Notes under the pieces: model-generated | Told to the model about the DNA's origin: nothing | Databases searched by the model: none | What the model saw: the letters and a program-made list of their open reading frames with translations, nothing else | In this document: positions 50,230 to 53,743 of the stretch, one piece after another | Position numbering within the stretch: position 1 is the first letter of the stretch | Layout: the number at the start of each line of letters is the position of its first letter | Origin: an uncultured Eubacteriales bacterium | GTDB taxonomy: Bacteria > Bacillota > Clostridia > Lachnospirales > Lachnospiraceae | Reading direction: 5' to 3' | Assembly: GCA_900316115.1 (NCBI GenBank) | Contig: ONBN01000005.1 | Span: 3,165-67,164 of the forward strand | Length of the DNA: 64,000 nt | Made by a program: the position numbers and the translations under genes

Positions 50230-50837
50230 TGCTGATGTATATTATCCGCCATGGGGAAACAGAATGGAACCATCTTCACAAGATTCAGGGAAGCGCAGAT
50301 ATTTCCCTGAATGAAGCCGGGATTTCCCTGGCAAGGCGGACCGGGGAAGCACTGAAAGATGTGAAATTTGACCTTTGTTTTTCAAGCCCTCTCCTTCGTG
50401 CCAGACAGACCGCAGAGGCTGTCCTTGGAGAACGTAAGATTCCGATGATCCTGGATAAAAGGATCCAGGAGATTAATTTCGGCGTTCTTGAGGGTGTTGT
50501 ATGGCTGGATAAAAACGGCCATGCAGTAAGTAAGGAGATGGAAGTATTTTTTGATGATCCTGCTCATTTCGGCAAGCCTGAAGGGGGAGAAAGCCTGAAG
50601 GAGGTGCTTGCCCGCACCAGGGAATTCTGGCTGGAAAAGACAAGTGATCCTGCCCTTTCTGACAAAACCATCCTTGTTTCTTCCCATGGATGTGCAGTGA
50701 GGGCTCTTTTGCAGAATCTGTACAAGGATCCGGAGCATTTCTGGCATGGGTGTGTACCGCCGAATTGCAGCATTAATCTGGTGGAAGTTAAGGACGGACA
50801 GGCCCGTTTTCTGGAAGAAGACAAGGTCTATGCCTGA
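50229..50837 (+). CDS. Histidine phosphatase family protein
   Basis: RHGETEWN, SSPLLRARQTA, EINFG, SSHG. Confidence 0.93.
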   Translation: MLMYIIRHGETEWNHLHKIQGSADISLNEAGISLARRTGEALKDVKFDLCFSSPLLRARQTAEAVLGERKIPMILDKRIQEINFGVLEGVVWLDKNGHAVSKEMEVFFDDPAHFGKPEGGESLKEVLARTREFWLEKTSDPALSDKTILVSSHGCAVRALLQNLYKDPEHFWHGCVPPNCSINLVEVKDGQARFLEEDKVYA

Positions 50838-50873
50838 GGGCAGAAATGAATAAATAAGCATAAGAATCATAGA

Positions 50874-50953
50874 AAAAGGAATTTTTGCCTGAAAAGGTAG
50901 AAATTCCTTTTTCCCTGTTATACCTTGTCCTGTTTTGAAATTTGTGCTATTAT
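50874..50953 (+). promoter_or_regulatory. Terminator followed by an extended -10 promoter for the ZorAB-like pair
   Basis: AAAAGGAATTT/AAATTCCTTTT hairpin; TTGTCC, 17 bp, TATTAT with a TG extension. Confidence 0.6.
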
Positions 50954-51011
50954 GATAAAAATGTGGTTAGTAGCATCTTTACCATAGAAAGCAGCCCAAA
51001 GGAGGTACAAC

Positions 51012-52637
51012 ATGGCAAAAAAGACGACAAATACACTTCTGTTTGCGCTGGTGTTCGCAGCGGCAGCCGGGATGACCGTCTACGTTGCAAAGGGAGCACC
51101 CAGCGTACTGATCTACAATTTTATTTTTCTTGGTACAATGACAGTGATCTATCTGATCGCATTGTTTGGCGGCATGTTCCGTATGGACAATCTGGGAGAA
51201 GCCTTTCACAGGGCAGCAGATGAGCTGACAAGTATATTCAAGACCCCTGGCAAGACAGATACCAAGAATCTGGCATACCTGGACGAACTGTTTGACGATC
51301 ACTACCTTGACAAGAAGATGGGGAATTTCTCCGAGAGTATCAGCCAGAGCAAGGAAGGGATCGGCGATATTGAAGAATACATCAATGATGATGAACTGGA
51401 TATCCATATACATAAAAGACTTCTGGAGATGGTGCCGGATATTTTTACCAGCCTTGGTATTTTAGGTACATTCATTGGTCTTGTATGGGGACTTAAGAAT
51501 TTTGAGCCTACCAATTATGAGGCTATGACAACTTCCGTATCCTCCCTGGTAGATGGTATCAAGGTAGCGTTCCTTACCTCTATTTATGGTATTGCATTTT
51601 CCATTATTTATTCCTGGGGAATGAAGCGGGAGTATTCCTTTATGTCCCAGAACCTTCAGAATTTCCTTGAGAAATTCCATGCATATGTGATGCCTACTGC
51701 TGAGAATGAAGCAAGGAATCTTCTTCTTTCCAGTCAGAAGATGCAGACAAAGGCCATGGCACAGATGGCAGAGCAGTTTTCTGTACAGATGGCAGACAGC
51801 TTTGAGAAGGTGATCACACCTACCTTCCAGAAGATGAATGACTCTCTGGATATGCTGGTGGCTTCCGTGACAAGATGTCAGCAGGATGCTGTAAGGGATA
51901 TCCTTCAGGAGTTCTTAAAGCAGATGCGTGGTTCCTTTGATACAGAGTTTGCGGGCTTTAATGAGGCGCTTGCCAGCCTGAAGCAGGCACAGAAGGAGAA
52001 TACCGCTTATACAACTGCGCTTTACCAGACCATGAGCCAGCAGCTTGGCCAGTCCTATGAGAAACAGGAAAAGGCCATGCGTGATATGGTTACAGAGCTT
52101 GGCGGCATTTCCAGCCGTTACATGGATACAGCTTCAAGGATCACTCAGGAGAACAGGGAGATCCAGAAGATCCAGCAGCAGGATTACCAGCATGTGGTAG
52201 ATTATCTGAAGGATGCAGAGAAGTCTGCAGCCAAGTTCTGGGTAGCATGTAACCAGGCAATGCAGAAATATGTGGAAACAGCAGCTTCTGGCATGGAGAA
52301 GGCTTCAGCCTCCAATCAGGCAGGCACGGATCTTCTGGCATCCAACAGCAGGCTTGTTGAGGAACTGGGCAGAGAGCTTCAGGAGTTTACCAGATACCAG
52401 CAGCAGTCTTATAAGACAATGGAGCAGGTACGCAGACTTCTTTCCGAGCTTTCCGCAGTAGGAGACAGAAGCGTTTATCTGATGAGCGGCGGCAGCAATC
52501 AGGAGTCTATGGACAGACTTGAGAAGCTGATGGAGCAGCAGGCGGCAGACCAGCAGGCAGTTCTGGAGGAGATCTCCAGGAATATCAAAGAACTTTCCAA
52601 AGGAGCACAGAAAGGAAAATTCGGTTTATTTAAATAA
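51012..52637 (+). CDS. MotA/TolQ/ExbB-family channel protein with long helical tail (ZorA-like)
   Basis: Two N-terminal TM segments; PDIFTSLGILGTFIGL and GIKVAFLTSIYGI helices; about 330-aa Q/E-rich helical tail. Confidence 0.8.
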   Translation: MAKKTTNTLLFALVFAAAAGMTVYVAKGAPSVLIYNFIFLGTMTVIYLIALFGGMFRMDNLGEAFHRAADELTSIFKTPGKTDTKNLAYLDELFDDHYLDKKMGNFSESISQSKEGIGDIEEYINDDELDIHIHKRLLEMVPDIFTSLGILGTFIGLVWGLKNFEPTNYEAMTTSVSSLVDGIKVAFLTSIYGIAFSIIYSWGMKREYSFMSQNLQNFLEKFHAYVMPTAENEARNLLLSSQKMQTKAMAQMAEQFSVQMADSFEKVITPTFQKMNDSLDMLVASVTRCQQDAVRDILQEFLKQMRGSFDTEFAGFNEALASLKQAQKENTAYTTALYQTMSQQLGQSYEKQEKAMRDMVTELGGISSRYMDTASRITQENREIQKIQQQDYQHVVDYLKDAEKSAAKFWVACNQAMQKYVETAASGMEKASASNQAGTDLLASNSRLVEELGRELQEFTRYQQQSYKTMEQVRRLLSELSAVGDRSVYLMSGGSNQESMDRLEKLMEQQAADQQAVLEEISRNIKELSKGAQKGKFGLFK

Positions 52638-52648
52638 AGGAGAGAATC

Positions 52649-53605
52649 ATGCACAAGAAAAGAAAATCTGAGGATGGAAGCTTTAATATCTGGCGTTCCT
52701 ATTCCGATATGATGTGCGGTGTATTGCTTCTCTTCGTACTGATCATGTGCGTAACTCTTTTCCAGGCTCAGAAAAGCTATGATGAGAGCATTAAGGAGCA
52801 GGAAGAGAAGAATGAGATGCAGGCCAATTATATTGCCGAGATCACTGCACAGCAGAATACCCTGGATGACCAGGATGCAAAGCTGAAGACACAGGATGAG
52901 AAGCTGTCTGCCCTGGCACAGCAGCTGGCAGAACAGGCACAGAAGCTTAAGGAACAGGAAGCAGCTCTTGCACAGCAGCAGGTGGATCTGGATGAGAAAA
53001 CCCAGCTGATCAACACCCAGCAGGCCAAGATCGATAATATCATCGGTGTAAAGGCAGAGGTTGTTGAGTCCCTGCAGCAGGAATTTGCCAAGAATAATCT
53101 GAATGTTAATATTGATTCCCAGACAGGAGCATTGACACTGGATGCCAGCGTTCTTTTTGCTTATGATGATGCAGAGCTTACTGAAGAGGGAAAAACAGCC
53201 CTTCGCAGTGTTCTGCCGATTTACTGCAAGGTGCTTCTGGAAGACAGCTACAAGTCTTATCTGGCAGAGATCATTATTGACGGTTACACAGATACAGATG
53301 GAGATTATGCTTATAACCTGGAGCTTTCACAGCGCAGATCCCTGGCAGTAGCCCAGTATCTGCTGGAAATACAGGGAGAATTCCTCACTTCTGACCAGAC
53401 GGTTGATCTGCAGGATTACCTTACAGTCAATGGACATTCCATGGCGAATCCGATCCTGGATGCCGACGGTAATGTAGATAAAGATGCGTCCCGTCGTGTA
53501 GAGGTTAAGTTCCGTCTGAAGGATGATGAGATGATCGATGAACTGAGCAGTATTATGACTACAGACCAGACATCAGCAGACAGTGCCGCAGCGGGAATTG
53601 ATTAA
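52649..53605 (+). CDS. MotB/OmpA-family protein (ZorB-like)
   Basis: WRSYSDMMCGVLLLF with the conserved TM Asp; coiled-coil stalk; OmpA-C motifs DGYTD, NLELSQRR, ASRRVEV. Confidence 0.85.
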   Translation: MHKKRKSEDGSFNIWRSYSDMMCGVLLLFVLIMCVTLFQAQKSYDESIKEQEEKNEMQANYIAEITAQQNTLDDQDAKLKTQDEKLSALAQQLAEQAQKLKEQEAALAQQQVDLDEKTQLINTQQAKIDNIIGVKAEVVESLQQEFAKNNLNVNIDSQTGALTLDASVLFAYDDAELTEEGKTALRSVLPIYCKVLLEDSYKSYLAEIIIDGYTDTDGDYAYNLELSQRRSLAVAQYLLEIQGEFLTSDQTVDLQDYLTVNGHSMANPILDADGNVDKDASRRVEVKFRLKDDEMIDELSSIMTTDQTSADSAAAGID

Positions 53606-53612
53606 ACAAACG

Positions 53613-53678
53613 AAAGATGCCGTACATGAGATTAAAGGAGAGTTATGGGTGTTCCCTCAATCTGTGTACAGCATCTTT
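53613..53678. terminator. Hairpin between convergent genes
   Basis: AAAGATGC/GCATCTTT with inner GTACA/TGTAC and AGATT/AATCT. Confidence 0.6.
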
Positions 53679-53743
53679 TATTGTATATTATATGTAAAAT
53701 TACTTTGCTATATTGTCATCTGGGTTATACTGCTATCTGGCGG

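Follow-up and report, generated by a model that had tools for sequence, protein, structure and literature searches.

In the type I Zorya systems of Escherichia coli (EcZorAB, 8qyd) and Shewanella ANA-3 (8vvn), ZorA carries the channel motif PxxxTxxGIxGTFxGL and a long helical tail, and the zorAB genes are accompanied by zorC and zorD in a defence-island location (PMC11946911, PMC11890865). E. coli ZorB has an N-terminal basic stretch, a transmembrane (TM) helix of the form WxSYxDxM with its Asp, and a C-terminal OmpA-like peptidoglycan (PG)-binding domain. In the published model, the PG-binding domains of E. coli ZorB contact the wall only upon envelope perturbation, and this contact starts the motor (PMC11946911). 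In characterised Zorya the loss of any gene abolishes defence (PMC11946911), and Zorya is under-represented in single-membrane bacteria (Hu et al., PMC11946911). Here we describe a pair of ZorAB-like genes, the zorA-like gene A and the zorB-like gene B, in a 64,000-nucleotide stretch of DNA (hereafter the window) from an uncultured Eubacteriales bacterium of the Lachnospiraceae (assembly GCA_900316115.1, contig ONBN01000005.1, positions 3,165 to 67,164), whose genus is Blautia according to public records of near-identical proteins. The pair shares the channel motif, the helical tail and the ZorB features listed above; unlike type I Zorya, it has neither zorC/zorD nor a defence-island location, and within its genus it is a near-core pair at a syntenic site. 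We lean, with moderate confidence, towards a vertically inherited ZorAB-family motor with an envelope housekeeping or surveillance role, rather than a canonical Zorya defence that targets DNA.

Relationship of the pair to ZorAB

Gene A (541 aa; 51012-52637) and gene B (318 aa; 52649-53605) are open reading frames (ORFs) on the + strand of the window, as are all features given below. PADLOC assigned gene B to ZorB1 (PDLC00609; 2.4e-69, in two stretches) and gene A to ZorA1 (6e-24). Among PDB sequences, gene A matched the ZorA chains 8vvn, 8qyy and 8qyd at 2e-14 to 2e-11, compared with E = 0.36 for MotA (8gqy), and gene B matched ZorB (8qyd_F) at 3e-20. Structural comparison with Foldseek ranked the proteins in the same way: the top six matches of gene A were ZorA chains (3.5e-7 to 9e-4), with ExbB/TolQ at ~1e-2 and MotA at 3e-2, while ZorB chains led the matches of gene B (top 8qyd_F, 3e-10). 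Precomputed Pfam records assign the identical protein cluster (P0001), and every homolog listed, to the family PF28082, 'ZorA-like_t1'; this is a family label only, and it shows that curators had noted the ZorA-like character of these proteins. In both sequence and fold, the pair is far closer to ZorAB than to MotAB/ExbBD. The curated NCBIfam models scored far under their cut-offs (best ZorA model 63 versus 250 bits; ZorB1 96 versus 400), which argues that both proteins are relatives, not members, of the curated anti-phage ZorA and ZorB families; NCBIfam MotA/MotP matches lay at 0.003-0.05.

Pfam places the MotA_ExbB channel region of gene A at aa 120-201 (51369-51614; 34.7 bits versus a cut-off of 22.9). 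Hydrophobic or TM segments lie at ~7-56 (an N-terminal TM hairpin), 140-158 and 181-200, with a small cytoplasmic domain between the hairpin and the channel helices. Across 40 orthologs the channel motifs P142-D-x2-T-S-x-G-I-L-G-T-F-x-G-L and G182-I-K-V-A-F-L-T-S-I-Y-G are invariant; the channel helices align with those of E. coli ZorA, and the channel region has the lowest entropy of the protein. Downstream lies a cytoplasmic tail of 336 residues (aa 206-541; 51627-52634), shorter than the tail of ~500 residues in E. coli ZorA. In the AlphaFold2 (AF2) monomer the tail is all-helical (helices 169-433, 439-479 and 497-533) at low confidence, with a predicted local distance difference test score (pLDDT) of 54, as would be expected for a single chain of a pentamer; from this model the secondary structure and the Foldseek ranking of the TM domain were used, and the tail geometry was not. 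The tail has a 3.5-residue amphipathic (hydrophobic) periodicity (z ~9 versus shuffles) and conservation peaks at aa 221-280, 381-420 and 461-480. It ends in a near-invariant basic/aromatic tip, QKGKFxLFK (533-541), which may be akin to a membrane-targeting amphipathic motif. Among the closest cluster representatives at 50% identity, most have a polybasic G[LF]F-type C-terminus, as do several relatives in the Lachnospiraceae and the canonical ZorA of one genome of the phylum (G462); the remote ZorA proteins compared lack it.

Gene B begins with a ZorB TM helix at aa 17-43 (52697-52777; hydropathy and alignment with E. coli ZorB), and its N-terminus gives a weak MotB_plug match in Pfam. Asp20 (codon 52706-52708) lies within W-R-S-Y-S-D-M-M, a motif invariant in all homologs; because KKRKSEDGSFNIWRSYSDMMCGVLLLF of gene B aligns with the motif KKRRSDEAEKPFWISYADLMTAMMVLF (W-I-S-Y-A-D-L-M) of E. 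coli ZorB, D20 is the predicted ion-binding Asp. The AF2 model (pLDDT 72 overall) consists of a single continuous helix from 12 to 148, at pLDDT 73-85, followed by an OmpA-like alpha/beta domain. This PG-binding domain (aa 161-290; 53129-53518) is matched by Pfam OmpA at aa 169-279 (50.2 bits versus a cut-off of 27.2; 3.3e-13), contains the motif Y-T-D-T-D-G-D-Y-A-Y-N-L-E-L-S-Q-R-R, and resembles the PG-binding domains of ZorB, OprF, OmpA and Pal in Foldseek.

The MotA_ExbB score above the gathering threshold and the TM Asp place the pair in the MotA/ExbB/TolQ-MotB/ExbD superfamily of 5:2 motors. MotAB/PomAB and ExbBD/TolQR belong to the same superfamily, with a MotA_ExbB domain and a TM Asp in the B subunit, and MotB also has an OmpA-like PG domain; unlike gene A, their A subunits have no long tail, and the similarity is far weaker. 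A channel with a long helical tail in gene A, and a TM Asp with a PG-binding domain in gene B, are the make-up of ZorA and ZorB in Zorya. The initial annotation, a reading of the sequence made before any database search, had called the two genes ZorAB-like, describing MotA/ExbB helices with a helical tail of ~330 aa and a TM Asp with a stalk of ~90 aa and an OmpA domain. Both ORFs and both architectures were recovered, the stalk being rather longer, at ~105 residues, and no search grouped the pair with MotAB/ExbBD.

The predicted extracellular coiled-coil stalk of gene B (aa 44-148; 52778-53092) is defined by the AF2 helix and a heptad pattern: Leu or Ile occurs at every seventh position (72, 79, 86, 93, 100, 107, 114, 121 and 128), a conserved Gln occupies the alternate core positions, and residues 45 to 132 include neither Pro nor Gly. 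With ~105 helical residues outside the membrane and a rise of 1.5 Å for each, the stalk would extend ~15 nm, a length similar to that of the low-density inner wall zone that electron cryo-microscopy shows in Gram-positive bacteria. Relative to E. coli ZorB, gene B has ~77 additional residues (11 heptads) of coiled coil separating the TM helix from the PG-binding domain. The distance from the TM Asp to GVKA is 113 residues in gene B, and among homologs it takes the values 50, 57, 71, 81, 106, 110, 113, 120, 127, 134, 137, 148, 151 and 158. Offsets from 113 fall on multiples of 7 or on 3/4 mod 7 and leave the other four residue classes empty, in lineages that are not independent. Such heptad-quantised distances are the signature of a coiled coil whose length changes in whole heptads or in register shifts of half a heptad.

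Canonical type I zorABCD loci are rare in the same phylum (5/401 sampled genomes; loci L062-L065 in G812, G486, G723 and G462). Directly 3′ of ZorAB, these Clostridia loci encode ZorC (PADLOC score up to 246 bits) and ZorD (up to 1410 bits). Canonical ZorA has 629-706 aa in three complete loci and 446 aa in G812, where the ZorD reading frame is also just 276 aa and is truncated or split. The canonical ZorB proteins have 238-245 aa and short linkers. The closest of them, ZorB of G462, is 42-44% identical to gene B, matches the same PADLOC model (PDLC00609) and falls within the Lachnospiraceae ZorB clade, and ZorA of G462 ends in a GLFxRFGRG-type tip like the tip region of gene A. Its Asp-to-GVKA distance is 50 residues compared with 113 in gene B, exactly nine heptads shorter. 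The long stalk had been proposed as an adaptation to a thick Gram-positive wall. This proposal stands only in part: since zorABCD loci of the same, presumably monoderm, phylum encode ZorB with short linkers, a long stalk is not simply demanded by a monoderm wall. Stalk length in the effector-less Lachnospiraceae pairs is variable and heptad-quantised, and the stalk tracks the effector-less lineage rather than the monoderm envelope as such.

Effectors, distribution and selection

No Zorya effector adjoins the pair, as the initial annotation had stated, and the genome as a whole was also empty for ZorC, ZorD, ZorE, ZorF and ZorG. Genome-wide searches for ZorC with PF15611 (EH_Signature) and PADLOC PDLC00613 gave no match, with the control genomes also silent; applied as a control across 401 genomes of the phylum, the same Pfam model found ZorC in 5. 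A tblastn search of the genome with four real ZorC/ZorD sets, together with a custom ZorC hidden Markov model, likewise returned none, while a canonical ZorB query in that tblastn run recovered gene B. One PADLOC model each for ZorE, ZorF and ZorG gave no match in the genome. The statement that flagellar, TonB and Tol genes are missing from the window extends to the whole genome: gene A is the sole MotA_ExbB match in the genome and FliG_C has none, the control genomes giving matches with both models. With no FliG, and with MotA/MotB not the closest relatives, a flagellar stator is not indicated. The gene pair is the only stator in a non-flagellated Gram-positive cell.

The distribution of the pair shows that it is no isolated oddity. 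Within the genus, an ortholog is present in 111 of 121 species (92%), at 45-96% identity, and in 64/69 high-quality genomes. Genes A and B are adjacent in 23/23 loci, 18 of which are preceded by BrkB-pheS-pheT-His-phosphatase. On the downstream side there is a short stretch of variable content (MatE, a ThiT-like gene, Zip or an extracytoplasmic function (ECF) sigma pair), followed by map(M24)-rplS-lepB-ylqF-rnhB. No consistently linked third gene was found in the 23 loci, and no motility or TonB-like genes were found there either. Transglutaminase-like, ECF-sigma, MatE, ThiT and Zip genes were each considered as a conserved third partner and rejected, as each adjoins the pair in some lineages only.

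In a tree of ZorB proteins the genus forms a clade (support 98/96) whose sister is a pair-only ortholog of another genus; the canonical ZorB of G462 lies within the wider Lachnospiraceae set on a long branch. The ratio of nonsynonymous to synonymous substitution rates (dN/dS, omega) relative to the closest ortholog was 0.042 for gene A (~0.03 for its tail) and 0.027 for gene B; the phosphatase next to the pair gave 0.092. Values from deeper comparisons were 0.07-0.15, for an overall range of 0.03-0.15. Purifying selection on the pair is strong, and the locus is near-core, syntenic and vertically inherited in the genus.

Genes A and B form a bicistronic operon, with a gap of 11 nt between them. 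Gene A is preceded by the strong ribosome-binding site (RBS) AGGAGG (51000-51005), read directly from the sequence, of which GGAGG is kept in orthologs, and gene B by a strong RBS, AAGGAGAG, ahead of 52649. A consensus scan and ortholog conservation identified a predicted sigma-A-type extended -10 promoter at 50925-50953, composed of a -35 element TTGTCC (50925-50930), a 17-nt spacer, TG (50945-50946) and a -10 element TATTAT (50948-50953). The motif CTTGTy-N17-TGnGATATTAT is kept upstream of ~20/26 orthologs, including those with other upstream genes, and the DNA around it does not align among these orthologs. Downstream, a simple scan found no terminator after gene B; RNA folding revealed an intrinsic-terminator-like long hairpin followed by the U-tract UUUUAUUGUAU (53606-53695). 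The hairpin (53606-53684; -26.5 kcal/mol, z -3.94) was matched in stability by 0/200 shuffles and lies within the 138-nt gap preceding the convergent MatE gene. An own promoter and terminator, which the initial annotation had ascribed to the pair, were both found in this way. So were its flanks, a phosphatase and a convergent MATE gene: Pfam and ORF analysis identified a branch-1 histidine phosphatase upstream, itself after pheS-pheT, and MatE downstream. In bovine gut metatranscriptomes (Logan contigs, >=99% identity) both genes are covered, and their word depth resembles that of pheT; a contig crosses the A/B junction and another begins at 50994, and coverage is nil at 50736-50952.

Possible roles of the pair

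The options raised at the outset were an effector-less or trans-acting envelope sensor, a defence acting by depolarisation, and a housekeeping wall-anchored motor. Because the locus is near-core, syntenic and vertically inherited, the last of these is favoured over the defence options. The job of this motor type is probably other than classical Zorya defence.

In the model that we propose, the pair encodes an ion-driven stator unit of the ZorAB family, for which homology to 8qyd and 8vvn suggests A5B2 stoichiometry and which has come to stand alone in Blautia cells. Two ZorB chains would form a leucine-zipper stalk of ~15 nm and keep their PG-binding domains permanently in the wall, in contrast to canonical Zorya, in which a short linker would allow wall engagement only upon a trigger. 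A rigid stalk of this length could hold the domains in the wall constantly, from which we infer a motor that is probably engaged constitutively. Once the plug is released, protons (or Na+) flowing via D20 would drive a more or less continuous rotation of the ZorA pentamer with its tail of ~35-50 nm. The target of the conserved tail and tip would be the membrane or a conserved partner in the cell rather than a dedicated nuclease. A fuller version of this model, which we put forward only tentatively, is that Blautia and related monoderm gut Firmicutes carry a nuclease-less ZorAB, having lost the nuclease or never had it, in which the linker has grown heptad-wise. The result would be a constitutive motor driven by proton-motive force, with a possibly membrane-binding tip, that serves envelope housekeeping (wall/membrane organisation, division or surveillance) as a functional monoderm counterpart of Tol-Pal.

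Several points limit this reading or weigh against it. The closest characterised relatives are all anti-phage systems. We infer the A5B2 stoichiometry, the tail bundle and the constitutive wall engagement. The pair is not essential: two congeners without it have unrelated genes at the site after pheT-phosphatase, which shows that the absence is real. The ZorA ortholog is split or stop-containing in ~3 species (G419:C1:149971-151619; G326, C13 + C144; G406:C119:1829-3447), with 3 TGA and 2 TAA stop codons seen; these copies may be real pseudogenes or assembly errors in metagenome-assembled genomes and, if real, would also make the pair dispensable. At the level of the family, relatives are patchy, occurring in 18/301 genera (6%; one genome per genus, E <= 1e-10) and mostly 25-37% identical, and ZorAB-like pairs in other genera adjoin HerA-like ATPases or helicases in surroundings that look defence-like. 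The absences are limited by the host genome itself (2.77 Mb, 107 contigs, 91% complete), by ZorF and ZorG models whose controls were silent, and by a ZorE model whose control gave matches in two archaea only, with their Zorya status unchecked. Finally, the RNA evidence consists of assembled contigs in which DNA carry-over is possible, and it speaks to presence only, not to expression level.

The strongest competing explanation is a genuine anti-phage system of a new Zorya type, in which ZorAB senses wall damage caused by phage and either signals via the tail to an unrecognised trans effector or, by uncontrolled ion flow, itself kills or arrests the cell (abortive infection of the depolarisation type). 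All of the best sequence and fold matches are to ZorA and ZorB of Zorya, the four-gene locus nearest to the pair is a genuine zorABCD (the G462 locus discussed above), the module is patchy among genera with some species doing without the pair, and sister modules lie beside HerA-like or MkoA-like genes. However, every gene is needed in characterised Zorya (PMC11946911), and this genome is without ZorC, D, E, F and G, nor is any third gene kept beside the pair. That 92% of species carry the pair at a fixed housekeeping locus, under an omega of 0.03-0.15 and with a conserved sigma-A promoter, is also unlike the usual defence island. Moreover, a stalk that would reach the wall at rest suits a contact-triggered sensor poorly when judged by the published model (PMC11946911). 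We consider an anti-phage function less likely, but of appreciable probability.

Decay can account for the missing effectors, for a gene A product of 541 aa with a shorter tail than canonical ZorA of the phylum (629-706 aa), and for the few species with split or stop-containing copies, each of which would fit a functionless remnant of type I Zorya left after loss of zorCD. Such a remnant is nevertheless highly improbable given purifying selection on both genes and on the tail (omega 0.03-0.15), motor residues that are all invariant and a promoter that is conserved. The pair has also been kept across ~111 species that have diverged to 45% identity, and transcript-derived contigs cover it. Least probable of all is an ordinary motility or transport stator (flagellar MotAB, a gliding-type motor or a Tol/Ton-like unit), which the MotA_ExbB domain, the weak MotB_plug match and the OmpA domain might suggest, but against which stand the lack of FliG and of a second MotA/ExbB gene in the genome, MotA, ExbB and TolQ matches orders of magnitude below ZorA by sequence and fold, and 23 loci without linked motility or TonB-like genes.

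Related loci and implications

Several loci with ZorAB-like genes in other genomes differ from the core pair in their neighbours. About 12/121 genomes of the genus have a second, patchy ZorA-like gene of 519-527 aa (L027 2573-9488 in G346; L033 in G325; L034 in G367). It is followed by a protein of 569-580 aa whose N-terminus is ZorB TM-like (PADLOC ZorB1, residues 4-48) and which has SpaA/prealbumin-like immunoglobulin domains and a C-terminal TM helix in place of the OmpA domain. The L027-type locus continues with a Wzz/BY-kinase-like ATPase, an O-antigen-ligase-like membrane protein and a VanZ-like protein, and looks like a ZorAB-like stator in a capsule- or exopolysaccharide-type operon.

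In three lineages, secreted transglutaminase-core proteins are encoded directly upstream of ZorAB-like pairs (L028 10290-12974 in G183; L029 5707-8001 in G092; L002 6983-7768 in Blautia schinkii). Two of them, of 894 and 764 aa, contain fn3 and Cys-rich repeats, and that of B. schinkii has 261 aa; the genome of the window encodes a 36%-identical homolog of the large transglutaminase-core protein on contig C67, apart from the pair. At L026 (2560-10890, G372) the neighbours of a ZorAB-like pair (606 and 280 aa) are a HerA/DUF87-type ATPase of 905 aa (PADLOC mad8, 1.5e-19) and unknown proteins of 361 and 587 aa, which may represent a new set of effectors for a ZorAB core. A further non-canonical neighbourhood occurs at L025 (7871-14802) in G301, a congener that also has the core pair: a ZorA of 631 aa and a short ZorB of 264 aa precede proteins of 408 and 559 aa, which have no Pfam or PADLOC match, and then TelA. 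The upstream flank of the core pair itself varies at L007 (1-7890), where a group II intron reverse transcriptase, a sortase, a toxin-antitoxin-like pair and DUF3991 lie just upstream; in other strains whose ZorA is identical (L005 and L006), genes of glutamine and nucleotide metabolism take this position, and the upstream flank in the L007 lineage is an insertion site.

We found no published description of effector-less ZorAB-like pairs, or of the function or distribution of PF28082, in the literature. The locus described here is an effector-less ZorAB core, tightly selected and near-fixed in one of the most abundant gut genera. The heptad-quantised stalk, and its contrast with the short linkers of canonical ZorB, offer experimental handles on how engagement of ZorB with peptidoglycan gates the motor. 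To our knowledge, the Gram-positive envelope has no equivalent of Tol/Ton. If the pair is a defence system, it would represent an effector-independent or trans-effector type of Zorya. If it is the housekeeping motor that we favour, it would reveal a new physiological role for the 5:2 motor superfamily and add to the biology of the Gram-positive envelope.

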